DNA of 64,000 bases from Candidatus Omnitrophota bacterium (GTDB lineage Bacteria; Omnitrophota; Gorgyraeia; Gorgyraeales; Gorgyraeaceae), in contig JBDRCN010000051.1 in assembly GCA_043821705.1 (NCBI GenBank), positions 28,007 to 92,006 of the forward strand. Direction: 5' to 3'. Shown piece after piece: positions 2,990-52,415 of the stretch. How positions within the stretch are numbered: position 1 is the first letter of the stretch; each line of letters starts with the position of its first letter. The position numbers and the translations under genes were made by a program. Under the pieces are notes generated by a model. The model was not told the DNA's origin, made no database searches, and was given only the letters and a program-made list of their open reading frames with translations.

Positions 2990-4957
2990 ATGAAAAGTGA
3001 ATACATGGCTATAAAAAACCAAACAAATCTTCCAAGAATACCACTTGAGGCAAGTATAGATCTTACCTATAGATGTAATAATAACTGCAGGCATTGCTGG
3101 AATCGGATACCTGGAAACTCAAAAAAAGAAAAAGAAGAGCTTTCGTTAGAAGAGATTAAAAATATAGCTTCTGAAGCCAGGAGCCTAGGAACAAGGAAAT
3201 GGCTTATCTCTGGTGGGGAGCCTATGCTGAGGCAGGATTTTATAGATATATTTGATTATTTGACCAGCCATTCCAAAAGCTTTCATCTTAATACAAATGG
3301 CACCCTGATTACTCCCAAGATAGCAAAAGTTTTTAAAAAGAGGCGCGGCGCTATAATGGTGGCTTTATATGGCGGAGATAAAAAGGTGCATGACCATATT
3401 ACCCGCAACCCAGGCTCATTTGAGCAAGCTTTAAGAGGTTTTAGATATCTAAAAGAAGAAGGGGTTAGATTTATAGTTCAGCTGATTCCCATGAAAGATA
3501 ATTTCCATCAGATAGATAAAATGAAAGAATTAGCTAAATCTCTCAGTGATGTTTATAGAATAGGCGCTTCATGGCTATTTGGTTCTGGATGCGCGGAAAG
3601 AAATAAAGAGATATTTAAGCAAAGGCTTCCTGCGGAAGTGGTGGTAGATTTAGACAAACCTGATATGTCATATGATAATAATGGTTTTGATCCGGAAGAA
3701 GAGGTTAAAAAAGAGGAGAGTTGCAGTATTAATACGAAGGGTATTTTTTCATCCTGCATAGACATGAGGCGTAATTTTCACATAGACCCCTGTGGAAAAA
3801 TGAGCTTCTGCAGTTTTGTTATAGGCCCGGAATTACGATACGACTTAAAATCAGGAACATTAAAAGATGCATGGGAGAATTTTATCCCATCTTTAAAAAA
3901 TAAGCTTACTGCTACAGAAAGATACCAGAAAACTTGCGGTTCGTGTGAACTTAGAGGAGATTGTAAGACATGTCCTGCTTATAGTTATTTGGAACATAAA
4001 AATTATTCAGGGAAGATAGGTTATCTTTGCGATGCAGCAAAAGAGACAAAGAAATATAAGGATAACTGGAAAAAGAATCACAGGAGGTTTTACGAAATAG
4101 CTGATATCAGTATACAGGTTGATTCAGATCTTCCTATAACAGATAAGACCTTTGCCAGTAAGTTTAAAGAGTTTGAAATAAAAAGCCCAGAAAAAGACAT
4201 AGTTAAAATAAGGCATCACTTTGGCATACCTGACATAACAAAAAAAGTTCTAGGAGAGGAGGTCTATCGTAAAGCACCATGGGCAATATATAAAAAGAAA
4301 AATTCCTGGATATATTTAGGTATATCTCCGATAGAAGACGATAAGCACCTTGATAGAATCGCTGTCTTTAATAAAGAGCATACTAGGCTAAGAGTGTATA
4401 ATACTAAGAGCAATAAGTTATTAAATAATTGCTCAACATCTTTAACTTTTTTTCCTAATGACCAGATAATGATTTCCAGGGCCTTGGCAGACAGAAATGG
4501 GTGTTATTTTCATTCAAGCGGAGTGGATTTTGAAGGAAAAGGCCTGTTGTTTATAGGACACGCAGAGGCAGGTAAGACTACAATGGCCAAGCTTTTGGAG
4601 GAAAAAGGAGCGGATATATTGTGCGATGAGCGTGTTATAGCCAGGAAAAAAAATGGCCAGTTCAGAATATATGGCACCTGGGATCATAGTGATTGGAATA
4701 AAGTGCTTAATAAAAGCGCTCCCTTAAAAGGAATATTCTTTCTTGAAAAATCAAAGCATAATTACTTAGAAAAAGTAAAGAATAAACAGATAATCATAAA
4801 AAAGCTTCTTTCAAGGGTTGTTAGGCCATTTGTAGATAAAGAATGGTGGGATAAGATAGTTTCAATAATAGAAGCTTTATCAAATGAAGTACCATGTTAT
4901 TTTGTCTATTTTGATAAGACAGGCAGGATAGCAGAGGTATTAAGGAAGTTAAAATGA
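2990..4957 (+). CDS. Radical SAM / SPASM-domain peptide-modifying enzyme fused to a C-terminal HPr-kinase-like P-loop domain
   Basis: 655 aa. It has a CNNNCRHC (Cx3Cx2C) radical-SAM motif and a GGEP glycine-rich SAM motif. A Cys-rich SPASM region CGSCELRGDCKTCPAY follows. The C-terminal HSSGVDFEGKGLLFIGHAEAGKTT...ADILCDERV matches the HprK C-domain pattern H-S-x-V-x-GKG-LL-G-x-GKT...DD/ER-V. Confidence 0.8.
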   Translation: MKSEYMAIKNQTNLPRIPLEASIDLTYRCNNNCRHCWNRIPGNSKKEKEELSLEEIKNIASEARSLGTRKWLISGGEPMLRQDFIDIFDYLTSHSKSFHLNTNGTLITPKIAKVFKKRRGAIMVALYGGDKKVHDHITRNPGSFEQALRGFRYLKEEGVRFIVQLIPMKDNFHQIDKMKELAKSLSDVYRIGASWLFGSGCAERNKEIFKQRLPAEVVVDLDKPDMSYDNNGFDPEEEVKKEESCSINTKGIFSSCIDMRRNFHIDPCGKMSFCSFVIGPELRYDLKSGTLKDAWENFIPSLKNKLTATERYQKTCGSCELRGDCKTCPAYSYLEHKNYSGKIGYLCDAAKETKKYKDNWKKNHRRFYEIADISIQVDSDLPITDKTFASKFKEFEIKSPEKDIVKIRHHFGIPDITKKVLGEEVYRKAPWAIYKKKNSWIYLGISPIEDDKHLDRIAVFNKEHTRLRVYNTKSNKLLNNCSTSLTFFPNDQIMISRALADRNGCYFHSSGVDFEGKGLLFIGHAEAGKTTMAKLLEEKGADILCDERVIARKKNGQFRIYGTWDHSDWNKVLNKSAPLKGIFFLEKSKHNYLEKVKNKQIIIKKLLSRVVRPFVDKEWWDKIVSIIEALSNEVPCYFVYFDKTGRIAEVLRKLK

Positions 4958-5053
4958 AAGTTCAATTTTTAAGAAAATCTTCAATATTTGCAAAAGTGTG
5001 GTATAATATATTAAAGATATATAAGCCATATTGTTAAAATAGGAGGATGTTTT

Positions 5054-5263
5054 ATGAAACAAAAAAAATGGGATAAGCCTGAATTGATTGTATTGTTGAG
5101 AGGAGAACCTGGAGAAGATGTTTTAATAGGGCAGTGCAAAACAGACACCGATGGTACTGACAAAATAGGGCCTATGGATGTAATAACAGGTTGCAGAGTT
5201 AACGCAGGTTGGATGGGCTGTCCGCCGGAGACAGCGTGCAGAGATTTTAGTTATACAACTTAG
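5054..5263 (+). CDS. RiPP precursor peptide A, with a PqqA-like leader (WDKPELIVLLRGEPGE) and a Cys-rich core ending in ...CRDFSYTT
   Basis: 69 aa. A strong RBS AGGAGG lies 8 nt upstream. A TGn-TATAAT promoter is at ~4976-5004. The core has five Cys. It lies between radical-SAM maturase genes. Confidence 0.6.
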   Translation: MKQKKWDKPELIVLLRGEPGEDVLIGQCKTDTDGTDKIGPMDVITGCRVNAGWMGCPPETACRDFSYTT

Positions 5264-5361
5264 CTAGCTCAGGAGGCTGAGAAAGTCTCGTTTTGTGTAT
5301 AATTTTGCTTTAGTAATAGTAGGATTTATAAATTTGTTATGTTAAAAAAGGGGTATTTATT

Positions 5362-5577
5362 ATGAAACAAAAAAAATAGAATAAGCCTGAATTGATTGTA
5401 TTGTTGAGAGGGGAGCCAGGAGAGTCAGTATTAGTCGGTGAATGTCTTACTGTATCAGCCGAGCCAGAGTTAGGTTCTAGTATAGGTGCAGCAGCAGAGG
5501 TAAACAATTGTGCATTGGTAAGATCTGCTGGTTGTGCAGCTATACAATGCAGTGCTATAGGCTATGAAGTCATATAG
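5362..5577 (+). CDS. RiPP precursor peptide B, a paralog of A, with an in-frame TAG at codon 6 (5377-5379) where A has TGG (Trp). It is either a pseudogene or uses the TTG start at 5392.
   Basis: The nucleotide sequence atgaaacaaaaaaaaTAGaataagcctgaattgattgtattgttgagagg parallels precursor A codon for codon. The downstream leader ELIVLLRGEPGESVLVGEC is conserved. The core is Gly/Ala/Cys-rich and sactipeptide-like. Confidence 0.45.
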
Positions 5578-5646
5578 GGGATTTCTGCTTTTATTTGTCT
5601 CGGCCCAAGATGAGATTGCAATCTAAATATTTAAAAGAAGCTAGCT

Positions 5647-6828
5647 ATGCATCAGGTATATGTAAAGAAAAAAAACATAAAACCTTATTTAGGTACTTTA
5701 ACCATAGAGCTTACAGAGAGGTGTAATAATAACTGCACTCACTGCTGTATTAACCTACCTGAACAGGACCTAGAGGCAAAAAGAAAAGAACTTTCCACAG
5801 ATAAGATAAAGTCTATTATTGAAGAGGCGCTTATTCTTGGCTGTAGGAAGATATGGTTTACAGGAGGAGAGCCTCTTCTAAGAGAGGATTTTGAAGACAT
5901 ATACATATTTACGCGTAAACTTGGGTTAAGAGTACTTCTTTTTACTAATGCTATGCTTATTACTCCTCGCATAATAGATGTTTTTAAAAAATATCCACCT
6001 AATGAAAAAATAGAAGTCACAGTATATGGATTAACTAAACAATCCTATGAATCTTCTACCAGGGTTCCTGGTTCTTTTGAAAAATTTAATCAAGGTACAA
6101 ACTTATTAAAAGAAAACAATATCCCATTTGTAATCAAGACAGCTTTATTGCCAGGAAATAAGCATGAAATGGGTAAAATACGAAGTTTTTCAGATTCCCT
6201 TCCTGCTACAGAGCTTGGCCTTCATTATTCTCTGCATTTTGACCTGCGAGGAAGAAGGGATGATGAAAAAAAGAACAACATGATAAAGCAATTAAGGATT
6301 TCTTCAAGAGATTCACTAGAGGTTTTAGCGAAAAATCGCGATGCTTATATTAAAGAGAAAAAGTTATATTGCAATAGATTTAATGGCTTAAAGGGAGATA
6401 GGCTTTTTTCATGCGGCGCAGGAATGCAGGGGGCGACTCTGGATGCTTATGGAAATCTACAACCCTGCGTTCTTCTTCGCCACCCTGATACAGTTTATGA
6501 CATTAAGAAAGGCACATTAAAAGAAGGGCTTAAAAAAATGCTCTATGAGGTGAGGAATATCCGTGCTGCTAACCCTGATTATTTATCCCGTTGTGCAAAA
6601 TGTTTTATAAAAGTATTATGTGAGCAGTGCCCAGGAAAATCATGGGGAGAACACGGTACTCTGGATACGCCGGTTGAATATCTTTGCAGTCTTGCGCATG
6701 GTTCTGCAAGATTTCTTGGCCTTTTAAAAGATAATGAAAGGGCGTGGGAGATTGAAGATGGGATAGAGAGGATGGAGAGGTTCACAGGCAAGAAAATAAA
6801 GGAGGTAGAAAGTGTCAACAAAAGTTAA
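5647..6828 (+). CDS. Radical SAM / SPASM-domain peptide maturase (paralog 2)
   Basis: 393 aa. It has CNNNCTHC, GGEPLL, and a C-terminal Cys cluster CAKCFIKVLCEQCPG. It is highly similar to the enzymes at 2990 and 7603. Confidence 0.8.
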   Translation: MHQVYVKKKNIKPYLGTLTIELTERCNNNCTHCCINLPEQDLEAKRKELSTDKIKSIIEEALILGCRKIWFTGGEPLLREDFEDIYIFTRKLGLRVLLFTNAMLITPRIIDVFKKYPPNEKIEVTVYGLTKQSYESSTRVPGSFEKFNQGTNLLKENNIPFVIKTALLPGNKHEMGKIRSFSDSLPATELGLHYSLHFDLRGRRDDEKKNNMIKQLRISSRDSLEVLAKNRDAYIKEKKLYCNRFNGLKGDRLFSCGAGMQGATLDAYGNLQPCVLLRHPDTVYDIKKGTLKEGLKKMLYEVRNIRAANPDYLSRCAKCFIKVLCEQCPGKSWGEHGTLDTPVEYLCSLAHGSARFLGLLKDNERAWEIEDGIERMERFTGKKIKEVESVNKS

Positions 6829-7120
6829 TCTTGATAAAATTTATAATATCTCTGACGAAGATGTTGTAGCTAGGGAAGTTGCTGGGGAATTTTTAATTAT
6901 TCCTATAACATCAGGCGTAGGAGATATAGAAGATGAGATCTATACTCTAAATGCTACAGGCAAGGCTATATGGGATAAGATAGATGGTAAAAAAACATTA
7001 AAAGAGCTAGCTTCAGAGCTTGCTGCTGAGTTTGAGGGCACTTCTGAAGACATTGAAAGAGATGTCACAGGCATAACAGAGGAGCTTTTAAAAAGAAATA
7101 TAATCTCTGAAAAGAAATAA
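6812..7120 (+). CDS. PqqD-like RiPP recognition element (RRE) protein
   Basis: 102 aa. Its size and pattern (VAREVAGEFLIIP...TLNATGKAIWDKIDGKKTLKEL...) are typical of the PqqD family. It overlaps the upstream radical-SAM gene by 17 nt. Confidence 0.65.
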   Translation: MSTKVNLDKIYNISDEDVVAREVAGEFLIIPITSGVGDIEDEIYTLNATGKAIWDKIDGKKTLKELASELAAEFEGTSEDIERDVTGITEELLKRNIISEKK

Positions 7121-7121
7121 T

Positions 7122-7613
7122 ATGTATCTTAGATATAAGGATGAAGTTGCTTATTTTTATAACGAGGAAATGATTGATTTAATGAAAGAAGCTTTCAAAA
7201 AAGGTAATTCCTTTCGTTTTAAGGCCAAAGGGTTTAGTATGTCGCCTTTCATTAAAGGCGGAGATGTTATTACTATTAAGCCGTTAAAAGAAGTTTCTTT
7301 GATAATAGGCGATATAGTATCTTTTATAAGCCCTAAAACAAATAGCCTTGCAGTGCACAGGATAGTCTCCATAAAAAAAAACGGTTGTGTGTTTAAAGGG
7401 GACAATAGCTTTAATTCTGATGGATTGGTTTTAAATAAGGATATTCTAGGTGTAATAAATAAGATAGAGAGAAATAATAAAGATATTACTTTCGGGCTTG
7501 GTAAGGAAAAAGGTATTATAGTATTTTTAAGTAGGACTAGAATCCTATTTTTATTTTTAAAGGTGTTTAGAGGTGTAAGGCGCTACACCAGGAGATTTTT
7601 TAATGGGAGATGA
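7122..7613 (+). CDS. S24/S26-family (signal-peptidase/LexA-like) serine peptidase, a candidate leader peptidase
   Basis: 163 aa. It has a GFSMSPFIKGGD nucleophile box, GDIVSF, HRIV and a KGDNSFNSDG box E-like motif. It is wedged between RRE and maturase genes. Confidence 0.55.
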   Translation: MYLRYKDEVAYFYNEEMIDLMKEAFKKGNSFRFKAKGFSMSPFIKGGDVITIKPLKEVSLIIGDIVSFISPKTNSLAVHRIVSIKKNGCVFKGDNSFNSDGLVLNKDILGVINKIERNNKDITFGLGKEKGIIVFLSRTRILFLFLKVFRGVRRYTRRFFNGR

Positions 7614-8751
7614 TTTTGTAAAGGTTCAGAAAATAACAGAGTTTAAGTTTAGAGGAAGCTCAAGCTCCACAAATACTCCCAAAGCTTTTAGTTTAGAACT
7701 TACTGCCAGGTGTAATAATAGGTGCGGGCATTGTTACATAGGCTTACCTGCCAATGATAAGGCTGCCAAAGAAAAAGAGTTGTCTTTTGAACAGATTAAA
7801 AGCATAGTTGATCAGGCTGTTTCAATGGGTGTTACAGGATGCCTTTTAACAGGAGGAGAGCCTCTCTTAAGAGATGATTTTTTTGACATCTATTTATACC
7901 TTAAGAAAAAAGGCCTATTTGTGTCTATTTTTACTAATGCCTGCCTTATTACAGAAGAACATGTAAAGCTTTTTAAAAGATATCCGCCGCGTGATGTTGA
8001 AGTAACAGTATATGGCGTTACAAAAGAGACGTATGAAAAAGTCACAAATGTCCCAGGTTCTTTTGATTCTTTTATGAGGGGGCTGAACCTTTTACTAGAT
8101 AATAGTATCAAGGTCAGGTTTAAGGCAATGGCTGTAAGGTCTAATTTAAAAGAACTTGAAGAGATCAAAAAATTCTGTAATGAAAGGACAAAAGATTATT
8201 TTAGATTTGACCCATTGCTTCATTTTAGGTATGACAGAAATGAATTCAGAAACCAGATGATTGCTTCCGAGCGCCTTACGCCTCTAGAAATAGCCCAGAT
8301 AGAAAAAGAGGATTTGAAGAGATTCGAGGTTTTGAAAAAAAACTGTGACAACTATATTATGCCGGAGTTTTTAGATAGAGTTACTAATCGCCTTATCTTA
8401 TGCGGAGCTGGTAATGGGAAATTTGTAGTAACTTATGACGGCTATTTTAAGCTATGCTCATCGCTTCATCATCCAGACTGTATGTATGACCTAAAAAAAG
8501 GCACTTTAAAGGATGCATGGGGAAACTTTATACCTAAAGTGAGGACAATGACCTCAAATAGGAAAGAATTTCTGGAAAAGTGCAGTAAATGCCCTATAAT
8601 AAATCTCTGCCTATGGTGTCCTGCGCATGCGTATCTTGAATCTGGTGAACTGGATAAGCCGATAGATTATTTCTGTGAAGTGGCGCATGCACGTGCGAAA
8701 ATGCTGGAAAGTGCAGTAAAGAAAAAAGAAGATGAAAAATTGCTAAAGTGA
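7603..8751 (+). CDS. Radical SAM / SPASM-domain peptide maturase (paralog 3)
   Basis: 382 aa. It has CNNRCGHC, GGEPLL, and a C-terminal CSKCPIINLCLWCPAHAY. Over its N-terminal ~150 aa it is ~50% identical to the 5647 gene by eye. Confidence 0.8.
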   Translation: MGDDFVKVQKITEFKFRGSSSSTNTPKAFSLELTARCNNRCGHCYIGLPANDKAAKEKELSFEQIKSIVDQAVSMGVTGCLLTGGEPLLRDDFFDIYLYLKKKGLFVSIFTNACLITEEHVKLFKRYPPRDVEVTVYGVTKETYEKVTNVPGSFDSFMRGLNLLLDNSIKVRFKAMAVRSNLKELEEIKKFCNERTKDYFRFDPLLHFRYDRNEFRNQMIASERLTPLEIAQIEKEDLKRFEVLKKNCDNYIMPEFLDRVTNRLILCGAGNGKFVVTYDGYFKLCSSLHHPDCMYDLKKGTLKDAWGNFIPKVRTMTSNRKEFLEKCSKCPIINLCLWCPAHAYLESGELDKPIDYFCEVAHARAKMLESAVKKKEDEKLLK

Positions 8752-8887
8752 TAAATTGCTAAATGGCTAAACTGTTAAATGGCTAAATTGCTAAATTGTT
8801 CAAAATTCAAAAATGATATAAGAAAAAGGACATAAAAATAAGGTAATTTATTTTGTATAAATACTAAAGATAGTATCTTGGGGAAAT

Positions 8888-10678
8888 ATGAGGCTATTCC
8901 AGCCTGATTTTAAGCAAACCAAAAAACAGTTCGAACTTTTTTTAAAATTCGTGAGGCTTATACTGCCTCATAAAGCCAAATGGATATTTATAATCTTATT
9001 AGGGGGTTTCTGGACGCTCTTAAGTGTAGTCAATCCATATATAACAAAGCTGGTTGTGGATGAAGGGATAATGAAGAGTGACCTGAGAAGATTTATAGCG
9101 CTAGCAGCCTTAGGGATCGTGATATTTATTATTCTTGGGGCAATCAATGGATTAAAGGAATATCTGGAGAAAAAAGTAAGCCTAGAGGTAAAATTTAGCT
9201 TAAATAAAATAGTTTTTGATAAGATCAATAAACTTTCTCTCAGCTGGTTTAGGACTAAATCAACAGGAGAGAATATCTATAAGATCAGTAATGACATTGA
9301 TAGGGTAAATAGCCTTATTACGACTATCCCTCCTAAAGCAGTAATGCTTTTTCCAAGAGTGATCTTTATCTTTTTAATAATGTTAAAGCTGAATTACAAA
9401 ATTGCTTTATTTTCATTGCTTTTAGCGCCATTTTTGTATATAGGCCCGTATTACTTTATCAAGAAACGTAGATCGATCTGGGAAAAATTAATAGAGTGCT
9501 CTCAAGGTATATTTAAATTTTTACATGAAAGTTTTTCACATAGCTATCTTATAAAAGCATTTGGCAAGGAGAGAGAAGAAAAGGACAAGTACTTAAAAAT
9601 ACTAAAAGATAATATTGAGATAGAAAAGACCAGCACAAAGCTAAACATTTTTAATAGCTTTGTTGCAAGGATAGCAGATAAGATCATAGTAGGGCTGATC
9701 ACTTTTTATGGCGGATACCATGTTATTAAGGGAGAGATGACTCTAGGGAGCCTGACTGCGATCTTAGTCTATCTAGGGCAACTGGTAGGCATGCAGCACG
9801 GGTTTATAGGATTTTTCCAGAGCACTGTCCTAGGCCTCGTATCATGCGAAAGGATAGCAGGTATCCTGGATGAAAAAGAAGAAATCACTGAAACATGTGA
9901 CGCAAAAGATATTTTAATTAAAAAAGGCGAAATAGAATTTAAAAAAGTAAATTTTGGATATTCTAAAGGTAAAGCTATTTTAAAAGATCTTGATTTCAAA
10001 ATAGAGGGCGGAAGGCATATTAGCTTAGCTGGTTCTTCGGGGCAAGGCAAGACCACAATCTTAAACTTGATCGCAAGGCTTTATGATGCGGATAGCGGTG
10101 AAATAATGATCGATAGGCAGTATATAAAAGACATCACGCTTAACTCCTTAAAAAAACAGATCAGCATGGCATTGCAGGAGACATTTCTTTTTAATACAAG
10201 CGTAAAAGACAATATCCTCTATGGGGACGGGAATGCTAGCTTAGAAGATGTTATAAGAGTGAGCAAGATTTCTTTAGTAGATAGTTTTACTGAAAATCTG
10301 CCAGAGAAGTATGACACAGTTATAGGTGAAAATGCATGTAAGATCTCAGAGGGACAGAAGCAGAAGATCGCTATTGCGAGAGCTTTAATTAAAAATCCTA
10401 AAGTTTTGATCCTAGATGAAGCATTTTCATCTATGGATTCAGCTAGCGAAGATAAGATAATATCGAACATAAAAGAAAATTTTAAGGATATTACAGTAGT
10501 CAGCGTCTCCCACCGCTTATCAACAGTAAAGCAATCAGACCTGGTGTATTTTTTAAATAATTCTGGGGGGATAGAGGTAGGTAAGCCAGAAGAACTTTTA
10601 GAAAAGAACATGGAATTTGAGGAATTGTTCAAGGGACAGAGGGAATTGACCATATCAGACCCGGGGTCTAATACATAA
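8888..10678 (+). CDS. ABC exporter, fused permease and ATPase (no C39 peptidase domain)
   Basis: 596 aa. An N-terminal 6-TM domain is followed by Walker A GSSGQGKTT, an ISEGQKQKIAIARAL signature, and Walker B LILDEA. Confidence 0.85.
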   Translation: MRLFQPDFKQTKKQFELFLKFVRLILPHKAKWIFIILLGGFWTLLSVVNPYITKLVVDEGIMKSDLRRFIALAALGIVIFIILGAINGLKEYLEKKVSLEVKFSLNKIVFDKINKLSLSWFRTKSTGENIYKISNDIDRVNSLITTIPPKAVMLFPRVIFIFLIMLKLNYKIALFSLLLAPFLYIGPYYFIKKRRSIWEKLIECSQGIFKFLHESFSHSYLIKAFGKEREEKDKYLKILKDNIEIEKTSTKLNIFNSFVARIADKIIVGLITFYGGYHVIKGEMTLGSLTAILVYLGQLVGMQHGFIGFFQSTVLGLVSCERIAGILDEKEEITETCDAKDILIKKGEIEFKKVNFGYSKGKAILKDLDFKIEGGRHISLAGSSGQGKTTILNLIARLYDADSGEIMIDRQYIKDITLNSLKKQISMALQETFLFNTSVKDNILYGDGNASLEDVIRVSKISLVDSFTENLPEKYDTVIGENACKISEGQKQKIAIARALIKNPKVLILDEAFSSMDSASEDKIISNIKENFKDITVVSVSHRLSTVKQSDLVYFLNNSGGIEVGKPEELLEKNMEFEELFKGQRELTISDPGSNT

Positions 10679-12085: not shown

Positions 12086-14158
12086 ATGAAAGTAGAGAAA
12101 ATAATAGGCAGAGAGAATCTCGTAATAGAAACAGGTAAGATGGCTAAGCAGGCGAATGGCGCTGTGTGCGTTCAATATGGGGGCACAGTAGTGCTAGTGA
12201 CAGCTGTCTCTAGCAAAGAGGTAAAGAAGGGGATAGATTTCTTCCCTTTAATGGTGGAATATAAAGAAAAGACATATGCTGCTGGTAAGATCCCAGGAGG
12301 GTATTTTAAAAGAGAAGGACGTCCTACAGAAAAAGAGATATTAACAGCTCGTCTTATAGATAGGCCTATCAGGCCGCTTTTTCCAGAAGGATATATAAAT
12401 GATGTGCAAGTATTTGCAACAGTGCTTTCAAGCGACGGGGAGAATGATTCTGACATCCCTTCCTTAATAGGGGCATCGTGCGCGCTGCATATATCAAATA
12501 TTCCTTTTTTAGGGCCAATAGGGGCTGTAAAGATAGGCATGATAAATGATGAGTTTATAGTCAATCCTACTTTTAAGGAGACAGAAGAGAGTAAGCTCAC
12601 TTTATTGGCAGTAGGACTTAAAGATAAAATAGTCATGATAGAATCCGAAGCTAATGAGGCATCAGAAGAAAAGATGCTTGAAGCTCTGGAATTTGCGCAA
12701 AAATATATAAAAGAGAGCATAGCTATCCAGGAAGACCTAAGAAAACAGTGCGGGATAGAAAAAGTAACACCAGTATTAGCAACTATCGATCAAGGGCTTT
12801 ATGAAAAAGTAAAGTCGCTCGCTCTAAAAGAGCTTCAAAAAGCAGTCAGTCTTTCCAAGAAAGAAGAAAGAAATGAAAAGAAAGACCAGCTAGTCAAGGA
12901 AGTGGTCGAGAAGCTAAAGGCAGAGGATGAGGAATTATCAGAAGTAGAGATAAAAAATGCCCTGCACAAGCTGGAAAAAGAAGAGATAAGAGCTTTTATC
13001 TTAAAAAATAATAAGAGGATCGATGGAAGAGGTTTTGAAGAGGTAAGGGCAATAACATGTGAAGTAGGGGTTCTTCCCAGGACACATGGTTCAGGGCTTT
13101 TTACCAGAGGAGAGACCCAGAGTCTTTCCGTTACTACCTTAGGCACTGGCCAGGATGAACAGAGGATCGATTCGCTAGAGGGCGAACAGTTCAAGACCTT
13201 TATGCTTCATTATAATTTCCCGTCTTTTAGCGTGGGAGAAGTAAGGCCAGCTAGAGGGCCAGGAAGACGCGAGATAGGCCATGGCGCATTAGCTGAAAAA
13301 GCTTTTAAAGCAGTTATACCCCCAGCTGAAGAATTCCCATATACAATAAGGGTAGTCTCAGAGATATTGGAATCAAATGGCTCTAGCTCTATGGCAACAG
13401 TCTGCGCTAGCACGCTTTCTCTGATGGATGCAGGGGTGCCTATTAAAAAACCTGTAGTGGGGATCGCGATGGGATTAGTAAAAGAAGGAGATAAAGCAGC
13501 TATTCTTACTGATATAGCAGGAGAAGAAGACCATTTTGGGGATATGGATTTTAAGGTCACTGGGACTGAGAGCGGTATAACAGCAGTTCAGATGGACTTA
13601 AAGATAGATGGTATAGGCCTGGCTTTAATAAAGAAGATCATGGCTCAGACCAAACCTGCGAGAGAATCTATAATGGCAAAGGTATTGGAAGTCATACAGA
13701 ACCCTAGAAAAGAACTTTCTACATATGCTCCTAAGATAGAGACCCTTACAATTGACAAAGACAAGATAAGGGATCTTATCGGCCCTGGTGGAAAAATAAT
13801 AAAAAAGATCATTGCTGATACTGGAGCGACCATTGAAGTGGATGATGACGGTAAAGTAGCAATATCATCTGACAATCAAGAGGCTATAAATAAGGCGATG
13901 GAGATCGTAAGAGGTATCGCAGGAGAGCTCGAGATAGGTGCAGTGTTTAACGGCACCGTGACGAAGATAATGAATTTCGGGGCATTTGTCGCGTTATTCC
14001 CAGGCAGAGAAGGCCTAGTGCATGTATCTGAATTAGCAGGCGGATTCGTGAAGAATGTCGAGGATGTAGTAAAAGTCGGAGATAAAGTAAAGGTTAAGCT
14101 CGTTAAAATAGACGAGATGGGCAGGCTGAATCTCAGCATGAAACAGGCAAAAGAATAG
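12086..14158 (+). CDS. pnp: Polynucleotide phosphorylase
   Basis: 690 aa with RNase PH, KH and S1 domains. The order is the canonical rpsO-pnp. Confidence 0.95.
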   Translation: MKVEKIIGRENLVIETGKMAKQANGAVCVQYGGTVVLVTAVSSKEVKKGIDFFPLMVEYKEKTYAAGKIPGGYFKREGRPTEKEILTARLIDRPIRPLFPEGYINDVQVFATVLSSDGENDSDIPSLIGASCALHISNIPFLGPIGAVKIGMINDEFIVNPTFKETEESKLTLLAVGLKDKIVMIESEANEASEEKMLEALEFAQKYIKESIAIQEDLRKQCGIEKVTPVLATIDQGLYEKVKSLALKELQKAVSLSKKEERNEKKDQLVKEVVEKLKAEDEELSEVEIKNALHKLEKEEIRAFILKNNKRIDGRGFEEVRAITCEVGVLPRTHGSGLFTRGETQSLSVTTLGTGQDEQRIDSLEGEQFKTFMLHYNFPSFSVGEVRPARGPGRREIGHGALAEKAFKAVIPPAEEFPYTIRVVSEILESNGSSSMATVCASTLSLMDAGVPIKKPVVGIAMGLVKEGDKAAILTDIAGEEDHFGDMDFKVTGTESGITAVQMDLKIDGIGLALIKKIMAQTKPARESIMAKVLEVIQNPRKELSTYAPKIETLTIDKDKIRDLIGPGGKIIKKIIADTGATIEVDDDGKVAISSDNQEAINKAMEIVRGIAGELEIGAVFNGTVTKIMNFGAFVALFPGREGLVHVSELAGGFVKNVEDVVKVGDKVKVKLVKIDEMGRLNLSMKQAKE

Positions 14159-37736: not shown

Positions 37737-37834
37737 TCGGGAAAGTGGGTTCGGAAAAAGTTGCAGGTTAATAAAAGCTTGACAGGTTTTTAGAACTGTA
37801 GTATAAAGAAGTTAATTGAATATTTATTTTTATA

Positions 37835-37985
37835 TTGTCTAAGGGAAGCTGGTGAGATGCCAGCGCAGCCCCGCTGCTGTAATAGGGTACGAAAGCTAAC
37901 ACTAAGCCATTATCTGCTCACGAAGCGGACGAGAAGGCGTTAGCAAGTAGAGAGATCCTTAAGTCAGAAAACCTTACAGTATATT
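37835..37985 (+). ncRNA. Cobalamin (B12) riboswitch
   Basis: GGGAAGCTGGTGAGATGCCAGCGCAGCCCCGCTGCTGTAA matches the conserved core (GGGAA-GGTG-CC...CCCGC-CTGTAA). It is followed by GTCAGAAAACC, and then by expression-platform hairpins and a terminator. Confidence 0.7.
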
Positions 37986-38078
37986 TTTCTTAAAAACCTC
38001 CGCGAAGGACGGAGATTTAAGAGTTCTATGATTATAAAGGTAATCATAGAGCGATAGAGGCTGATAAAACGTGGGATC

Positions 38079-38129: not shown

Positions 38130-40133
38130 ATGAAAAAAATAATATTGATCGGTATTGCGGCTGTAACATTATCTTCTTTTGCTTACGCAGAAGACAGCGC
38201 AATAGATTTGGAAAAGATAGTTATAACCCCGGCGCGTATGTGTCAATATATGAACGAGGTTGTCTCAAATGTGGATGTAATCACTAGCGATGATATTGCT
38301 GGCTCTAATGCGCTGTATGTAAAGGATATTTTAGAGCAGAAACTAGGCCTGAACATATACAGCAATAGCACCCCCAAGACAGTCAAGGTAGACATCAGAG
38401 GCTTTGCAGATACATCTGTAAGCAATGTATTAGTATTGATCGATGGCAGAAAAGTAAATTCCATAGACATGTCAGGCGCAGACTGGGTACAGGTACCTGT
38501 GGAGACAATAGAAAGGATAGAGGTCATAAAAGGCGCTGGGTCAGTCCTATATGGGGATAATGCAGTAGGAGGTGTAATTAATATAGTTACAAAAAAAGGC
38601 AGAGGCGATAAGGCCTCTGGGAGCGCAGGCGTTAAATATGGAAGCTATAACTTGATCAAGGAAGATGTTGAGTTGAAAGGGGAGTTTAAAAAAGTGTCTT
38701 ACTATTTCCATTCTGATTACAGTGAATCAGATGGTTACAGGGATAATAGCGATCTATTGGTAAAGGATTATAATACTAGGATATGTTTTGATGCCACAGA
38801 TGTTCTTAGTTTGGATTTTGCAGCTGGCTGGCATGAGGATGACTACGGCATGCCAGGAGGGCTTAATGACTCTGAATTGGCACAATATGGAAGACGAGGA
38901 TCAGTGGATAATAGAGATTTTGCCACTACTAAGGACAGATACATAAGACTATCTCCTGATTACAAGGCTGAATTGTTTGGCGTGGATTTTGGGGATATTA
39001 TAATAGACTTATTTTACAGGAACAGGGATTCTTACTCATGGTTCTATTATGGGGGCTTTCCAACAGCTACTAAGTATATGATAGACACGAAAGGTGTGAC
39101 ATTGAAGCACGTTTATAAGGGGGACCTTAAGGGCACCAGGCTTAACGTTGTGACAGGCGTAGATTATTATGATGTCGAGCATATTATCAAGCAGAGCGAA
39201 TGGGGAACAGATGATCTGACCATTTACAAGGATGAGCTAGGTGTTTATTCATATCTTGACTACGAACTATTTGACAAGTTTTTTATAAATACTGGAGGAA
39301 GGTACCAGACTGCAGAATATACTTTTGACCAAAGGGCTTCAAGCGTTAATTATGTAAAGAGAGAACCGAGAGAAAGTGTTTTTATGGGCGGCGCCAAATA
39401 CGAATACAGAAAAAACTCTTTTATACATTGTAGCGTTCATGAGACTTTCAGGTTTTTGGCGACTGATGAGTGGTATTCAACATGGACAGGATTAAATACT
39501 AATATCGATCATCAAACAGGAATTCAATATGAAGCAGGCATAAAACATGATTTTGACAATAAAGCCAAAATTAAATTGACCCCTTATTTAATAGATATAA
39601 AGAATGAGATATATCTCAATCCGAGCGTATGGCCCGGGAACAATGATAATTATGATAAGACAAGAAGAAAAGGGCTTGAAGTAGGCGTGGAAGCCAACAT
39701 AAAAGACATATTGGAGATAGATTTTCTGGATAAATTGTCTTTATCAGCAAACTACAATTACCAGGAACCAAAATTCAAGGATGGCTCTTTTAGCGGCAAA
39801 TATATACCTTTTGTCCCAAAGCATTCTTTTAACACAGTGCTGGAAGTGGGTGTTTTTGACGGTTTAAATATTTCAGCATCAGGCAGGTTCATTGGGGATA
39901 GGTACGCTATAAATGATACGAGCAATGTGGCATCCAAAGTGAAGAATAGCTTCGTATGCGATACAAGATTATACTTCATTAAGAAATACTATGAGATCTA
40001 CGCAGGAATTAATAATATATTTAATGAGAAATACTTTGATTACGCTGTTAAACCTACTGGAGCAGGTACTGCAAAAGATTACTATCCTGCACCAGAACGC
40101 AATTTCGAAGTCGGAGTAAAGTGTAAATTTTAG
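38130..40133 (+). CDS. TonB-dependent outer-membrane receptor (BtuB-like cobalamin receptor)
   Basis: It has a signal peptide, a TonB-box/plug region (EKIVITPAR), a 22-strand barrel-sized C-terminal part and a terminal aromatic residue (…KCKF). Confidence 0.85.
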   Translation: MKKIILIGIAAVTLSSFAYAEDSAIDLEKIVITPARMCQYMNEVVSNVDVITSDDIAGSNALYVKDILEQKLGLNIYSNSTPKTVKVDIRGFADTSVSNVLVLIDGRKVNSIDMSGADWVQVPVETIERIEVIKGAGSVLYGDNAVGGVINIVTKKGRGDKASGSAGVKYGSYNLIKEDVELKGEFKKVSYYFHSDYSESDGYRDNSDLLVKDYNTRICFDATDVLSLDFAAGWHEDDYGMPGGLNDSELAQYGRRGSVDNRDFATTKDRYIRLSPDYKAELFGVDFGDIIIDLFYRNRDSYSWFYYGGFPTATKYMIDTKGVTLKHVYKGDLKGTRLNVVTGVDYYDVEHIIKQSEWGTDDLTIYKDELGVYSYLDYELFDKFFINTGGRYQTAEYTFDQRASSVNYVKREPRESVFMGGAKYEYRKNSFIHCSVHETFRFLATDEWYSTWTGLNTNIDHQTGIQYEAGIKHDFDNKAKIKLTPYLIDIKNEIYLNPSVWPGNNDNYDKTRRKGLEVGVEANIKDILEIDFLDKLSLSANYNYQEPKFKDGSFSGKYIPFVPKHSFNTVLEVGVFDGLNISASGRFIGDRYAINDTSNVASKVKNSFVCDTRLYFIKKYYEIYAGINNIFNEKYFDYAVKPTGAGTAKDYYPAPERNFEVGVKCKF

Positions 40134-43067: not shown

Positions 43068-43093
43068 TCCGACCTAGTTCTAAATAAACATCA

Positions 43094-43130
43094 CCCGCGA
43101 GTGATATTATGTTGCTCGCGGGTTTTTTTA
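43094..43130 (+). terminator. Rho-independent terminator after groEL
   Basis: cccgcgag-tgatattatgttg-ctcgcggg followed by ttttttta. Confidence 0.8.
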
Positions 43131-43429
43131 TACCCATAACAGCAAATATGTCAAAGCTAAAAGGAACCCTGTTTGCTCATATGAAAATTTCCCCTTCGGG
43201 TCACCTTTTATTCAGCATTTTTCGGGGCTCGAAGAACTTGCCACCACAAAATCTGGTGTGGTGGCTTCGGACAGCTTCGAGCCTTTTCGCCTCATAGAAT
43301 GTGGCATAAAAACCGAAAAATGCTTCATAAAAGTCTAAATTTCAAATTCGCAAACGAGGGTATCCGTTTTAGTTTTGACCATATAGGCCTATTGTCAGGT
43401 TGCTTCTAACCTGGTTAGAAGTGGCAGAT

Positions 43430-43519
43430 CAGCAGCGGGTGGCCGCGATTGGGGTCCCTGCAAGCGCGCAGCGTTTGGCGAGCACTTGCGGGGTGAATCG
43501 CGGACAGGACCCGCTGCTG
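43430..43519 (+). repeat. GC-rich structured repeat element, copy 1 (nested stems: CAGCAGCGGGT...ACCCGCTGCTG outer, CCGCGATT...AATCGCGG middle, CCTGCAAG...CTTGCGGG inner)
   Basis: It is ~90% identical to 47368-47464. The differences are compensatory on both strands of each stem. It is immediately upstream of a TTGACA -35 box. Confidence 0.7.
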
Positions 43520-43592
43520 ATAAGTTACGGAGATTGCTTTGACAATGAACACGCCCTATGATATATTAATATAATAAAGATAGGGGGTATAG

Positions 43593-44531
43593 ATGGCGAT
43601 CCTTCAGGAGCTTCCAAAAAAACTTATCGATAATATTTCAAAAGTAATAATCGGGAAATTAGATGCCATTGAACTGGTAGTGATAGGGCTATTAAGCAAT
43701 GGACATATATTGCTGGAAGATGTTCCGGGTTTGGGCAAGACTATGCTTTCAAGAGCTCTTGCAAGATCCATTGAAGGAGATTTTAAGAGGATACAATTTA
43801 CACCTGATCTTTTACCATCCGATGTAACAGGTGTCTCTATATATAATCAGAAAAAATGCGAATTCGAATTTAAAGAAGGCCCTATCTTTGCAAATATACT
43901 TTTGGCGGATGAGATAAACAGGACCACGCCCAGGACGCAATCAGCACTTCTTGAAGCTATGCAGGAGTTTAGCGTTACAATGGATGGAGAATTGAAAAAG
44001 CTTCCTAAACCATTTTTTGTCATAGCTACAGAAAATCCTATAGAATTTCATGGTACATATCCTCTTCCAGAATCTCAAATAGATAGATTCTTGATGCAGA
44101 TAAAAGTCGGTTACCCTACGAACGAAGAAGAAGTAAAGATACTGGTAAAAAACTTGAAAGAACCCCCGATTGATAAACTAACCAGCGTAATAGACATAAA
44201 AGATATATTAGCTTTGCAAGAAGCAGTAAAGACAGTGCACTTAGACACTCATGTAAGTCAATATATCGTTAAAATAGTATCAGAGACTAGAAACCTTCCT
44301 GGAGACATAAAGCTCGGGGCTAGTCCTCGTGCTACCCTAGCTCTTATGAATACTTCCAGGGCTTTAGCATATCTGAATAAAAGAGATTATGTCATACCTG
44401 ATGATGTTAAAAAACTTTCTTATCACGTGCTTAACCATAGGATCATTCTTCAGCCGCGCTCGATCGTTAGAGGGCTTACACCAGAACATATCATCTCTCA
44501 TATACTGAAAAATATGGCTGTTCCTGCATAA
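43593..44531 (+). CDS. MoxR-family AAA+ ATPase
   Basis: Walker A GVPGLGKT, Walker B LLADEINR, and the MoxR C-terminal region. Confidence 0.9.
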   Translation: MAILQELPKKLIDNISKVIIGKLDAIELVVIGLLSNGHILLEDVPGLGKTMLSRALARSIEGDFKRIQFTPDLLPSDVTGVSIYNQKKCEFEFKEGPIFANILLADEINRTTPRTQSALLEAMQEFSVTMDGELKKLPKPFFVIATENPIEFHGTYPLPESQIDRFLMQIKVGYPTNEEEVKILVKNLKEPPIDKLTSVIDIKDILALQEAVKTVHLDTHVSQYIVKIVSETRNLPGDIKLGASPRATLALMNTSRALAYLNKRDYVIPDDVKKLSYHVLNHRIILQPRSIVRGLTPEHIISHILKNMAVPA

Positions 44532-44534
44532 AAG

Positions 44535-45755
44535 ATGCCGAAGATCAAATGTATATCCCTTGCCTTCACTACCATTCTTACGTTAGCCTTTGCCTGGAAC
44601 ACAAGCGTTGAGCTTTTTTATACTTTATTCATATTAGGTTCCAGCATACTTATACTTTCTTTCCTGAGCTTTGTAACATTTAAAGCTAAACTCAAACTCG
44701 CAAGAACTGTCCAGGACATAGCATACGAAGATGACCTTATAAACGTAGGCATTGACATATCGAGCAAAAAGATACTTCCGTCTTATTCAGTGGAGATAAT
44801 AGATCATTTTAAAGGCGAGTCACCAGGGCAGACAGAAAAATCCATGTTCCTTTCAAAGTTAAAAGGAATGGGATCCAGGAAGATCAGTTATGTCACAGAG
44901 TGTTATAAAAGAGGGCTATGGGATTTTGGTCCCATCGTAGTGTCTTCGCAGGACTTTTTAGGGTTCTTTGAATCCAAAAAGAAACACAAGGTCTTTTCAA
45001 AGATCCTAGTGTACCCAAAGCTATTCAATGTACTTACTTTTCCAGAACCTAAAAGCTCGTCTTTATCCTGGATGGGAGTTGAGACAGCTAAGATAAGCGG
45101 TGATAGTCACGAATTTTTTGGTGTAAGAGAATACCAGAGAGGGGACCTGAAATCCAGGATCCATTGGCCATTGACCGCGAAACACAACAAGCTTATAACA
45201 AAAGAATTCCAAAGAAGCGCAGCGCAGGAAGTCACTATAATCTTGGACCTCGAAAAAGATCATGATATCGGGATAGGAAGGGATTCTACCTTAGAATATT
45301 CTGTCAAGATAGCTGGCTCTATAGCAAAGTATCTTTTGGATAAAGGGGTCTTTATACAGCTAATAGGGCACAGCAAGGAAAGAGATATCCTTCCGTTTGG
45401 AAAAGGTGAATCTCATATGCATAGGATATTGGAATATCTTGCGATGGTCACTTCAGCAGAAGGCCTAAAACTCAGCCATGTCCTAGATGAGGCGATATTT
45501 TTTACACCGAACCAATCTACACTTGTCACAATGGTCTTAGATAATGACTTAGAGGCGATATCCAATCTCTTCCAATATAAGATAAAAGGCATCAAATTAA
45601 TATTATTCGTATTTTCTGTAGAGACCTTTGGGGTTATCCATGAAACAGAAAAAAAACATGTTACTGAGTTTGAAGATACATTGGTAAACCTAGAAGCAGA
45701 GACCTATAGGATATCAAAAGATGACAATCTAGAGGAGAAATTACAGGCTAAATGA
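44535..45755 (+). CDS. DUF58-domain protein (VWA-like partner of MoxR)
   Basis: It has N-terminal TM segments and REYQRGDLKSRIHWPLTAKHNKLITKEF, the DUF58 signature. Confidence 0.8.
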   Translation: MPKIKCISLAFTTILTLAFAWNTSVELFYTLFILGSSILILSFLSFVTFKAKLKLARTVQDIAYEDDLINVGIDISSKKILPSYSVEIIDHFKGESPGQTEKSMFLSKLKGMGSRKISYVTECYKRGLWDFGPIVVSSQDFLGFFESKKKHKVFSKILVYPKLFNVLTFPEPKSSSLSWMGVETAKISGDSHEFFGVREYQRGDLKSRIHWPLTAKHNKLITKEFQRSAAQEVTIILDLEKDHDIGIGRDSTLEYSVKIAGSIAKYLLDKGVFIQLIGHSKERDILPFGKGESHMHRILEYLAMVTSAEGLKLSHVLDEAIFFTPNQSTLVTMVLDNDLEAISNLFQYKIKGIKLILFVFSVETFGVIHETEKKHVTEFEDTLVNLEAETYRISKDDNLEEKLQAK

Positions 45756-47308
45756 GAGATACCACGGAGAATTCTTTTTATCATTGGTCAAACCTAGCGC
45801 TTATTTTGTTAGTTATATTTTCTATCAGAAGTCTTACAGGTGTCTTTATTTCATACGTACTCTTCTTGGGCTTGATAGTAGGGTTCTTCGTAAGTTGGCA
45901 TATAAAAGACATAAAGATACGTTATATAGGTGCTGTGATAAATATATTATCAGTAGTCATGTTTATATTCATAATGGGAGAGATGTTAAGACCTGGCCTG
46001 ACGTTTTTTGACATCATCAGGACACTCTCTCTAATGCTTGCTTGGTTTGCATTCCTTAAAAGTTTTAACATAAAAGGCTTAAGGGACTATGGAACATTAC
46101 AGATCATGTCTGTGACGATGCTAATACTATTTGCTTCTCTCAAGATGGAGAGAGATATAGAACACCTACATATCGTCCTATTGTTCTTTTTCATATTTAT
46201 TTTTACGATGAGAATGAACCTGCGCTGTGAAAAAGTGGAAAAAGATTCTTTTATGGCTGACAGAAAAGATAGGTCATCCATTGTGTATAATGACCTAGGC
46301 CTGGCAGTCATACTTTTTTTATCAGTCATCTTAATAGCGACATTGTTATACCCTTTTATCCCTAAAAAGGATAATTTTTCAGTGGATTTTTTACCTAAGA
46401 TGATCCCAAGCGCCTTTATTCAAAAGATCTCAGAGAACTTAATGGAGAAGATAGACTTTGACGATATGATGCAAAAAAAGTTGCCTAGGGATAAGTCGCC
46501 TCAGTCATCTTCTGAGCCATCAACTGCTTCATCGTCTGATCTCGTATTAGAGTCAACACCTCTTTCATCATCAAGCGTTTCGTCGTCATCTATTTCTGCG
46601 TCAGAATCACCTGCGTCTTCATCATCGAGCTTATCTTCCGCGCCATCTATCTCCGTAGATGCTATATCGCCATCATCTTCTGCATCGTCAAGCTCGTCAT
46701 CTTCTGAGTCGTCTTCACCATCTTCTTCAGTAGCGCCAGAGACAGTCAAGATCGAGGAAGAAGAGGAAGAATATGAACCTGAGTTATTGAGGAAAATAAA
46801 TTGGTGGCTTATTCTATTGCTTTTATTATTACTACCTTTTTTAATATGGCTTGTCCTCCTGATCTTAGTACCGCTACTTATTATGTTTTTGCCTTATATC
46901 TTAGTGGCTATCTATCTCATTAGAACTTATATCCGTAGATATGTACTGAGCAAAAAAGCTAAAGACAATCCAAAAGAGTTTGTAATGGATATATACAGGT
47001 CTTTACGTAACAGCTTGAGGTTTTATGGGCTGAGCATAACTACCCACCAAAGTCATATGGAGCTTTACGATGAATTAAAAAAACATAAGGCTGCTTCATC
47101 CGAATATATGCATAAACTGACGACTAATGCATTAGAAGCTAGTTTTTCAAATCATCTGATCACTAAAGAACACTCAAAAGAAGCTTTGACCTTATTTAAG
47201 ATCATAAGATACAATCTTCTGAATAATAGAGAAAGTACGCCTTTATGGAGGAGAATATTTTTTAAGTTAGCTGTCCTGGATATTACACTGGTTTCGGAGG
47301 AGTTTTGA
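45752..47308 (+). CDS. Membrane protein with a Ser-rich/acidic low-complexity region and a C-terminal DUF4129-like domain (third gene of the MoxR operon)
   Basis: It has multiple N-terminal TM segments, a ~90-aa S/A/E/D-rich tract (46500-46790) and a C-terminal TM followed by a DUF4129-like region. Confidence 0.55.
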   Translation: MRDTTENSFYHWSNLALILLVIFSIRSLTGVFISYVLFLGLIVGFFVSWHIKDIKIRYIGAVINILSVVMFIFIMGEMLRPGLTFFDIIRTLSLMLAWFAFLKSFNIKGLRDYGTLQIMSVTMLILFASLKMERDIEHLHIVLLFFFIFIFTMRMNLRCEKVEKDSFMADRKDRSSIVYNDLGLAVILFLSVILIATLLYPFIPKKDNFSVDFLPKMIPSAFIQKISENLMEKIDFDDMMQKKLPRDKSPQSSSEPSTASSSDLVLESTPLSSSSVSSSSISASESPASSSSSLSSAPSISVDAISPSSSASSSSSSSESSSPSSSVAPETVKIEEEEEEYEPELLRKINWWLILLLLLLLPFLIWLVLLILVPLLIMFLPYILVAIYLIRTYIRRYVLSKKAKDNPKEFVMDIYRSLRNSLRFYGLSITTHQSHMELYDELKKHKAASSEYMHKLTTNALEASFSNHLITKEHSKEALTLFKIIRYNLLNNRESTPLWRRIFFKLAVLDITLVSEEF

Positions 47309-47367
47309 AATATTGCTCTTTCATCTGACAGCCTGTTTGGCATTCGAAAAATCGTAAGATTACTATA

Positions 47368-47464
47368 CCAGCGGGTGGCCGGGATTGGGGCTCCCCGTAA
47401 GCGCGCAGCTTTTCGCGAGCACTTACGGGGTGAATCCCGGACAGGACCCGCTGGCACAACAGCC
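47368..47464 (+). repeat. GC-rich structured repeat element, copy 2
   Basis: The same nested-stem architecture as 43430-43519, with covarying stem bases (CCGGGATT/AATCCCGG, CCCCGTAAG/CTTACGGGG). It is immediately upstream of a TTGACT-17-TATCAT promoter. Confidence 0.7.
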
Positions 47465-47531
47465 TTGACTTTTTACAAGTTTTACTGTATCATAAAAAAA
47501 TTAACTATTAAATCAAACGGAGGTACATAAA

Positions 47532-52399: not shown

Positions 52400-52415
52400 G
52401 GGACAGGACCCGCTG
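52400..52415 (+). repeat. Third occurrence of the GGGACAGGACCCGCTG motif (the 3' end of the GC-rich repeat family), again ~30 nt upstream of a TTGACA -35 box
   Basis: The sequence is identical to the 3' outer-stem arm of the elements at 43430 and 47368. The 5' partner arm was not found nearby. Confidence 0.5.

Follow-up and report, generated by a model that had tools for sequence, protein, structure and literature searches.

Repetitive extragenic palindromic (REP) sequences are recognised as folded single strands in which certain unpaired bases are critical, and they can stabilise messenger RNA (mRNA). The Rickettsia palindromic elements (RPEs) are non-coding palindromes of about 100 bp, located between genes or in frame within housekeeping genes, where they appear as extra peptide loops; we know of no enzyme that mobilises them. 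REPs are occasionally intragenic, notably in genes of replication and repair, they carry an unpaired GTAG or CGTC tetranucleotide as a tag at one end, and the single-stranded REP is bound by the REP-associated tyrosine transposase, RAYT (RPEs are cited as a comparison in the same paper, PMC3733652). The Breaker laboratory has described the MRSC-65-2 motif, a long single hairpin with strong covariation. Its representatives number over 20,000, come from diverse phyla and reach dozens in a genome; the authors judged the motif to be selfish and possibly to act as DNA (PMC11109978). The present study concerns a 64,000-nucleotide stretch of a Candidatus Omnitrophota genome (contig JBDRCN010000051.1, positions 28,007 to 92,006, hereafter the window), in which two copies of a GC-rich hairpin, A and B, bracket the moxR-DUF58-DUF4129 genes, and a third site holds a remnant of the 3' end. 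These repeats and the remnant probably belong to a dispersed, non-coding, GC-rich selfish hairpin element that behaves like REPs, REP doublets forming hairpins (REPINs) and RPEs. The family is real, structured and multi-copy; it is present in many phyla, independent of its neighbours and polymorphic in its presence, it is not part of what is conserved at the moxR locus, and it is able to sit in frame within essential genes.

Copies A and B have the same orientation, are spaced by 3937 nt and are 89% identical over 66 nt without gaps (window repeat family D6). Each is predicted to fold into a single long hairpin made of three stacked helices, with a minimum free energy of −62.3 kcal/mol (z −7.4) for copy A and −55.0 kcal/mol (z −6.0) for copy B; none of 200 shuffled sequences folds as well as either copy. 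The first helix, P1 (CAGCGGGU/ACCCGCUG), is followed by an internal loop in which GG is opposite ACAGG, then by P2 (CCGSGAUU/AAUCSCGG), a G-rich bulge and P3 (CCCCGUAAG/CUUACGGGG in copy B). Beyond P3 lies an apical module, CGCGCAG-hairpin-CGAGCA. The differences between the two copies respect this fold. Helix 2 has one G-C/C-G swap, which is fully compensated, and helix 3 has one compensated U-A/C-G swap and one C-G/U.G change. The other differences affect loops or the outer flanks; these flanks differ between the copies yet are complementary within each of them. No pair is broken, every change being compensated, wobble-compatible or located in a loop. The original prediction, made from the sequence alone, had described two structured copies at these sites, taken their differences as compensatory and proposed that selection acts on structure rather than on sequence. 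All of this holds, and the last point is seen far more strongly across the relatives described below than between A and B.

The family was delimited by a scan for the exact pattern CGGGTGGCC-N50-80-GGACAGGACCCG, using one genome per species. It matched at least 113 loci, which belong to about ten phyla. About 13 of the matches listed, in high-GC genomes, look like chance, and about 100 form hairpins built in the same way; the counts of neighbours, flanks, skew and open reading frames (ORFs) given below rest on these 100 or so loci among the matches listed. More copies, for which a search had been proposed, do exist, and the idea of a class specific to one lineage is not supported. The carriers are found among Acidobacteriota, Actinomycetota (Solirubrobacterales, Thermoleophilaceae, Acidimicrobiia), the ultra-small Saccharibacteria, Omnitrophota and Planctomycetota, and also Nitrospirota, Chloroflexota, Methylomirabilota, deltaproteobacterial and gammaproteobacterial metagenome-assembled genomes (MAGs) and others. 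The G+C content of the element is 55–84% in the listed matches, even where that of the host is 38–49%. Several copies are present in several genomes. Inverted pairs of elements 48–110 nt apart (L064 534-761 and L078 6845-7120) recall REP doublets or bacterial interspersed mosaic elements. At four loci of one Vicinamibacterales MAG (L001, L047, L059 and L060), the core is located within a longer palindrome, TTAGAGCAGGTTGCAAAATTAGCTCGCTCG-core-CCTTGAGCTAGTTTTGCAACGCACTCTTA, which measures about 165 bp and has TTA on its flanks, as though it were the composite that was being copied.

A covariance model (R1) was built from 28 family members. The family unit is a hairpin of about 78–110 nt whose ends pair as CGGGU/ACCCG. 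Among its conserved features is an asymmetric internal loop in which GG faces (G)ACAGG, and past it come the second helix, the G-rich bulge, the third helix and the apical module GCGCAG...CGAGSAC, which holds a covarying pair. In the alignment of the 28 sequences, 84% of the cells are paired, and the covariation score is 0.347, compared with 0.054–0.082 when the partners are slid; none of 500 shuffles equals it. Covariation, which the original prediction had asked to be checked, is strong. For instance, a pair in the apical part is formed by C-G in 15 sequences, by G-C in 12 and by G-U in one, and no sequence leaves it unpaired. The outer stem, which is outside the fixed pattern, covaries too, and in the copies that the model found without the exact pattern, 5' GGGUGR and 3' RCAGGACCCG resist change. 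Because of its conserved loops, the element is strand-asymmetric in sequence: R1 gives 89.4 bits to copy A on the plus strand and 10.6 bits on the minus strand, and 95.7 and 16.6 bits, respectively, to copy B.

The element is not associated with any gene. Its nearest neighbours are ordinary housekeeping genes, and the nearest ORFs (86 upstream, 94 downstream) share no Pfam family beyond chance; none of the neighbours is a transposase, an integrase or a reverse transcriptase. When 2671 ORFs from 100 loci are clustered all against all, no family is represented in more than five loci, the largest clusters being EF-G, acetyl-CoA synthetase, DnaK, RF1 and sigma factors. The Pfam searches, the clustering and the inspection of the largest clusters reveal no recurrent partner gene. 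This absence of association means that the element has no role of the riboswitch or leader type, and that no enzyme is carried by it or adjoins it. The orientation relative to the flanking genes is near random (13 ++, 10 −−, 6 convergent and 5 divergent, from crude gene calls).

Searches for a described relative were negative. The region of copy A has no match in Rfam 15 at E values up to 10, the whole window matches only an unrelated cobalamin riboswitch at gathering scores, and the elements in 36 family loci have no match either. ARAGORN finds no tRNA or tmRNA. The element was not found in viral contigs with the exact pattern, nor in phages, plasmids and complete E. coli genomes with blastn. 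A full-text search of the literature for the conserved sequence strings gave nothing relevant, only unrelated primers. Presumed likenesses to the CR-V segment of RNase P (ACAGAACCCGGCU), to the Ro-binding stem of Y RNA and to the D-arm of class II tRNA (GUGGCCGAG) are not supported by Rfam and were not used.

Some copies are located inside genes. In low-GC genomes, copies that are read through and add about 30 residues are present in ychF (L008, sense) and cysS (L043, antisense); an antisense copy in a 569-residue ORF (L074) is also read through, again with about 30 extra residues. In five genes (coding for YchF, CysRS, an Lhr helicase, DnaX and a Mur ligase, Table 1), the element has Pfam domains to either side. 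The five in-frame copies occur in both orientations, and the 26–31 or so residues that they add are between or within the Pfam domains. Since the frame is kept and stop codons are absent, these copies appear to be translated rather than removed. The tolerance of the element within ORFs follows from its openness: copies A and B are free of stop codons in four to five of the six reading frames.

Presence of the element in these genes is polymorphic. The YchF proteins of Saccharibacteria fall into length classes of 329 and 354–388 residues, and their CysRS proteins into classes of 445–448 and 467–497 residues. A filled and an empty ychF, whose products are 97% identical, differ by exactly 87 nt, from CGGGTGG to GGACC, and only a CG dinucleotide is ambiguous at the junction. 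Since this insertion equals the core, the conserved core is itself the unit that moves. No long target-site duplication is present in the ychF pair. In the case of cysS, the flanks of the filled and empty genes are too diverged for the junction to be placed.

Table 1. Hairpin copies and remnant in the window, and in-frame copies within genes of other genomes (L-numbers designate family loci)
Feature	Location	Strand	Description
Copy A, hairpin element	43428-43521	+	Core 43436-43513 (78 nt) plus complementary flanks; core CGGGTGGCC...GGACAGGACCCG; outer stem ATCAGCAG/CTGCTGAT from copy-specific flanks
Copy B, hairpin element	47368-47454	+	Core 47372-47450 (79 nt); outer stem CCAG/CTGG
Solo 3'-terminal remnant, GGGACAGGACCCGCTGATAA	52399-52419	+	Equals the 3' end of copy A save for a 3-nt CTG indel
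Intragenic copy, ychF	L008 5921-6021		In frame
Intragenic copy, cysS	L043 3597-3697		In frame
Intragenic copy, lhr	L028 6526-6616		In frame
Intragenic copy, dnaX	L099 890-988		In frame
Intragenic copy, Mur ligase gene	L002 6915-7009		In frame

The moxR locus was compared with eight loci (L114–L121) from seven other Omnitrophota genomes; the close homologues of the MoxR of the window are all from Omnitrophota. The seven genomes share one block of genes: a TonB-dependent receptor, TonB, groES, groEL, moxR, DUF58, TgpA_N/DUF4129, the IMPDH-family gene, dnaE, HU, hisS and aspS. R1 finds no element in the eight loci, including in runs with filters off in four of them, so that the homologous operons, which it had been suggested to inspect for similar flanks, are not flanked by it. 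The relatives devoid of the element nevertheless keep the moxR promoter (TTGACAAT...TATGATATATT) and that of the IMPDH-family gene (TTGAC...ACTGTAT). Since gene order and promoters are conserved without the element, copies A and B are lineage-specific additions upstream of older promoters, and the element is neither the border of a cassette nor the regulator of the operon.

The original prediction had listed the terminal repeats of an integrated cassette carrying the three-gene MoxR module among its possibilities, and attC-like sites would be a variant of the same idea. It is true that the two direct copies bracket exactly three genes, at the spacing given above, but the probability of this explanation is next to nil: the module is located between groEL and the IMPDH-family gene in the seven element-free genomes, there is no integrase, the RYYYAAC/GTTRRRY core sites are missing, and one of the loci (L114) carries a different repeat in both spacers. 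Synteny and the missing core sites rule out the cassette and attC reading. The L114 repeat (...TTTTGAACGGGCAYGGT..GCCCT..., at 9752-9789 and 13725-13762, spacing 3973 nt) fills the two spacers that are orthologous to those of copies A and B, and likewise brackets the moxR operon. This suggests permissive spacers and not the borders of a cassette; those between groEL and moxR and between the DUF4129 and IMPDH-family genes seem to be simply places where repeats can persist.

A third occurrence of the 3' arm motif near 52400, upstream of a TTGACA, had also been noted. The 15-mer GGACAGGACCCGCTG does occur exactly three times in the window, compared with 0.34 occurrences expected by chance, the third being at 52401-52415, and the TTGACA is present downstream. 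However, there is no 5' arm: the similarity of the upstream sequence to the element is no better than that of shuffled sequence, and is below the shuffle mean, which rules out a degenerate full copy. The site gives no fold signal (z −0.7), and R1 scores it at only 14 bits (E 0.8). This site is a fragment of the 3' end, not a third copy.

The promoter-like hexamers to which the repeats had been linked are TTGACA at 43539, TTGACT at 47465 and TTGACA at 52446. The gap between the end of the outer stem and the hexamer is about 18 nt for copy A, where the hexamer is the −35 element of the moxR promoter, and about 11 nt for copy B; at the third site, about 31 nt separate the end of the 15-mer from TTGACA. 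This arrangement could recall a palindrome in the DNA to which a regulator binds, or a site with an architectural or recombination function, by which the moxR operon and the adjoining promoters would be governed, since both copies and the remnant have the same orientation and are about 11–31 nt upstream of good −35 hexamers. Such a function is very improbable. The promoters are kept in the relatives that lack the element; elsewhere the family neighbours unrelated genes, in both orientations, and is found within coding sequences; and an 80–110-bp unit with a variable apical part is far above the size of an operator. The hexamers described upstream of the genes are real, and the function linked to them is not supported: the moxR-DUF58-DUF4129 genes are neither a mobile cassette nor controlled by the repeats.

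Each copy follows a gene whose transcript it might affect. The groEL gene stops at 43067, and a terminator scan places a canonical terminator of its own at 43093-43123, the only one nearby on the plus strand. Copy B is placed downstream of the DUF4129-type gene, whose stop codon is at 47308, and upstream of the promoter of the IMPDH-family gene. No T-run follows either copy, and the terminator scan calls neither of them. The absence of a T-run and the presence of the groEL terminator upstream of copy A rule out an intrinsic terminator, and with it the terminator class that had been considered.

A broader possibility is that the element is a structured RNA that benefits the host, as a 3'-end stabiliser, a transcriptional insulator or a non-canonical terminator ahead of the next promoter. 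REP sequences stabilise the mRNA upstream of them, the hairpins are very stable, no strong hairpin other than copy B lies between the 47308 stop and the next promoter, and three copies of the family (L014, L040 and L041), which within operons follow a stop codon and precede the next Shine-Dalgarno sequence, are certainly transcribed. We nevertheless consider this explanation unlikely. There is no U-tract after the two copies and groEL already has a terminator; the orientation relative to the flanking genes is close to random, and the copies internal to ORFs occur in both orientations; relatives with the same operon and promoters lack the element; and a simple hairpin role leaves the conserved asymmetric loops unexplained. 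An RNA role, such as 3'-end protection, is possible as a side effect, but it cannot account for the distribution of the family.

The spacer between groEL and moxR contains other palindromes. An imperfect one of about 250 nt (roughly 43146-43390) lies upstream of copy A, and a 12-bp hairpin (43401-43427) immediately precedes it. The whole spacer, of 401 nt, folds with z −10.2, as a pile-up of palindromic inserts.

The flanks and the strand preference of the listed copies bear on how the element may spread. Outside the core, the flanks pair at positions +1 to +5 in 95, 77, 68, 69 and 57% of the copies, whereas in a control that combines flanks of different loci the figure is 68% at +1 and about 38% from +2 to +5. 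At least six consecutive flank pairs are found in 15% of the copies and in 0.5% of the control, and the flank sequences vary from copy to copy. This complementarity possibly results from insertion at the centre of existing palindromes, from outgrowth by template-switch "correction", or from selection for longer stems. The top strand of the element is on the strand of negative GC skew at 61 loci and on the other strand at 31 (p 0.002); the numbers are 50 and 28 without orthologous loci (p 0.017). The window copies are in the minority orientation. Replication-coupled single-strand transposition, as in the IS200/IS605 elements, yields a strand bias of this kind; a cause linked to transcription is possible instead.

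If the family is a selfish element, its copies would be gained and lost independently of the adjoining genes, and would survive where they are nearly harmless: within intergenic spacers, in the gaps that separate cistrons and, in frame, in loops at the surface of proteins. The window copies would have landed in two spacers just upstream of promoters that existed before them. The element may be recognised in the form of a folded single strand, most probably of DNA, by an enzyme that would be encoded elsewhere in the genome, and the effects on transcripts (roadblock, 3'-end protection) would be incidental. Recognition of a folded single strand is suggested by the conservation of unpaired bases, by the requirement for a folded stem and by an orientation bias that is linked to replication or to the strand.

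Several observations weigh against a selfish, mobile element. The mobilising enzyme was not found among the neighbours of the listed copies, and there is no long target-site duplication. The intragenic copies were detected through an open frame across the element, a procedure that disrupted or spliced cases would escape. The 30 nt or so that flank the ychF insertion are far more diverged than the rest of the gene (L008 5800-6140 compared with L122 570-830), which suggests that a segment bearing the insertion was exchanged by homologous recombination; the presence or absence of the element in ychF could thus be due to homologous exchange or to precise deletion rather than to recent transposition. 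In the well-anchored helices, G.U and A.C pairs are about equally frequent (about 22 each in a tally from partial per-pair lists), so that the wobble is silent as to the active strand or the RNA form; the overall counts, 84 and 47, are treated as uninformative. Lastly, the three loop modules kept across phyla exceed the known complexity of REPs, RPEs and MITEs (miniature inverted-repeat transposable elements), and look like those of a functional RNA.

The family could indeed be a new functional or catalytic RNA, for example a ribozyme that cleaves itself, or the RNA belonging to a retro-mobile or RNA-guided element whose spread involves an RNA intermediate. Three conserved internal-loop modules and covarying helices are maintained in about ten phyla, nothing in Rfam 15 matches the element in the window or in the 36 loci, and the strand asymmetry is strong (about 90 bits on the plus strand compared with 10–17 on the minus strand). 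A multi-copy, context-free distribution is also typical of hammerhead and twister ribozymes. Yet no reverse transcriptase, nuclease or other partner is present near the listed loci, the tally just mentioned shows no excess of G.U over A.C, the in-frame and stop-free intragenic copies would be translated rather than removed, and the orientation favours the strand opposite to the G-rich one, which is usually the coding or leading strand. We regard a functional or catalytic RNA of this kind as decidedly improbable.

A further reading, which we find doubtful though less so than the RNA explanations taken one by one, is that of an uncatalogued cross-phylum element whose asymmetric loops are bound by, or form, new mobility machinery. 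This machinery might consist, for instance, of a hairpin-specific system for single-strand transposition or retro-insertion whose enzyme is unlinked and possibly domesticated, or of a self-processing RNA. If this were the case, the family would be a "universal REP", present in spacers and in essential genes from Saccharibacteria to Acidobacteriota. As for the selfish element that we favour, it would be among the most widely distributed bacterial selfish repeats known; the family gives a handle on how REP- and RPE-like elements spread, and its conserved loops could be used as a bait for the enzyme. It also affects annotation, by spurious extensions of ORFs and by about 30 extra residues in conserved proteins of MAGs.

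Other features of the window were noted. The cobalamin riboswitch (37799-37995, plus strand, 79 bits, E 7.5e-18) is directly upstream of a 667-residue ORF (38130-40133), whose counterpart in the relatives is a TonB-dependent receptor beside genes of cobalamin salvage and transport. In a related genome (L026), about 600 nt separate the same riboswitch from one of the hairpin copies. A second GC-rich repeat, unrelated to the first, is a REP-like, near-perfect palindrome of 27 nt (CCTCCGCAGACCCCGGGTCTGCGGAGG) located at 22027, 22140, 22861 and 40955; one copy is just upstream of groES, beside a TTGAC hexamer. The region 3056-8513 contains three paralogous units spaced by about 2650 and 1989 nt (repeat families D3, D5, D7 and D11), which have the appearance of a duplicated precursor-plus-maturase gene set. 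It includes two 99-nt copies (5032-5130 and 5340-5438) that carry a small ORF beginning with MKQKKWDKPELIVLLRGEPGE; this ORF is intact only in 5032-5130, the other copy having a stop at the seventh codon. A tandem repeat with a period of 8 nt, (AAATTGCT)-like and of about nine units, is present at 8729-8800.

Compared with the known systems, the family resembles REPs and REPINs in being dispersed and multi-copy, and in consisting of GC-rich imperfect palindromes, mainly intergenic, in both orientations and with some inverted pairs. It differs from them in several respects. The REP or REPIN unit is a palindrome of 20–40 nt or an inverted doublet, whereas the present family is a single hairpin of 78–110 nt with three helices and three loop modules. 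The GTAG/CGTC tag is absent from the ends of both window copies, and the CGGGT...ACCCG ends are common to the listed relatives. REP families are specific to a species or a genus, while the core and loops of this family are conserved over about ten phyla. RAYT genes (TnpA_REP, HUH Y1) are typically flanked by the repeats, and no RAYT-like gene is located beside the listed copies.

The likeness to RPEs lies in the in-frame, read-through copies in ychF, cysS, lhr, dnaX and the Mur ligase gene, and in the existence of an empty ychF allele. RPEs are AT-rich and confined to Rickettsia and relatives, in contrast to this GC-rich family of many phyla (compared by description only). MITEs such as Correia (CREE), ERIC and bcr1 are also short, non-autonomous hairpin repeats that are found near promoters or terminators and are co-transcribed. 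However, MITEs have the terminal inverted repeats of a parent insertion sequence (IS) and a defined target-site duplication; the present family shares only CGGGT/ACCCG, the overlap in the ychF pair is at most 2 nt (CG), and the flanks are complementary to each other instead of being direct repeats. No parent IS was found in the 100 listed loci. Integron attC sites are imperfect palindromes of 57–141 nt with a variable centre and extrahelical bases, which recombine as folded single strands and bracket cassettes in direct orientation, much as copies A and B bracket three genes, but here the RYYYAAC/GTTRRRY sites, the integrase and the cassette array are lacking, and the bracketed genes belong to a conserved chromosomal block.

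As for MRSC-65-2, its UYCCGG repeat is missing altogether from 89 of 104 family members when the plus strand is read, and from 87 of 104 on the minus strand. The two families are therefore distinct, the repeat being absent from about 85% of the members on either strand. The family is set apart by its size, by the conservation of its three loop modules and by the fact that it is maintained across phyla, and it is because of these features that a functional RNA or a new kind of mobility keeps a minor share of our confidence. Its nearest published parallels are REPs, including the intragenic ones, RPEs and MRSC-65-2, the last being unrelated but similar in kind.

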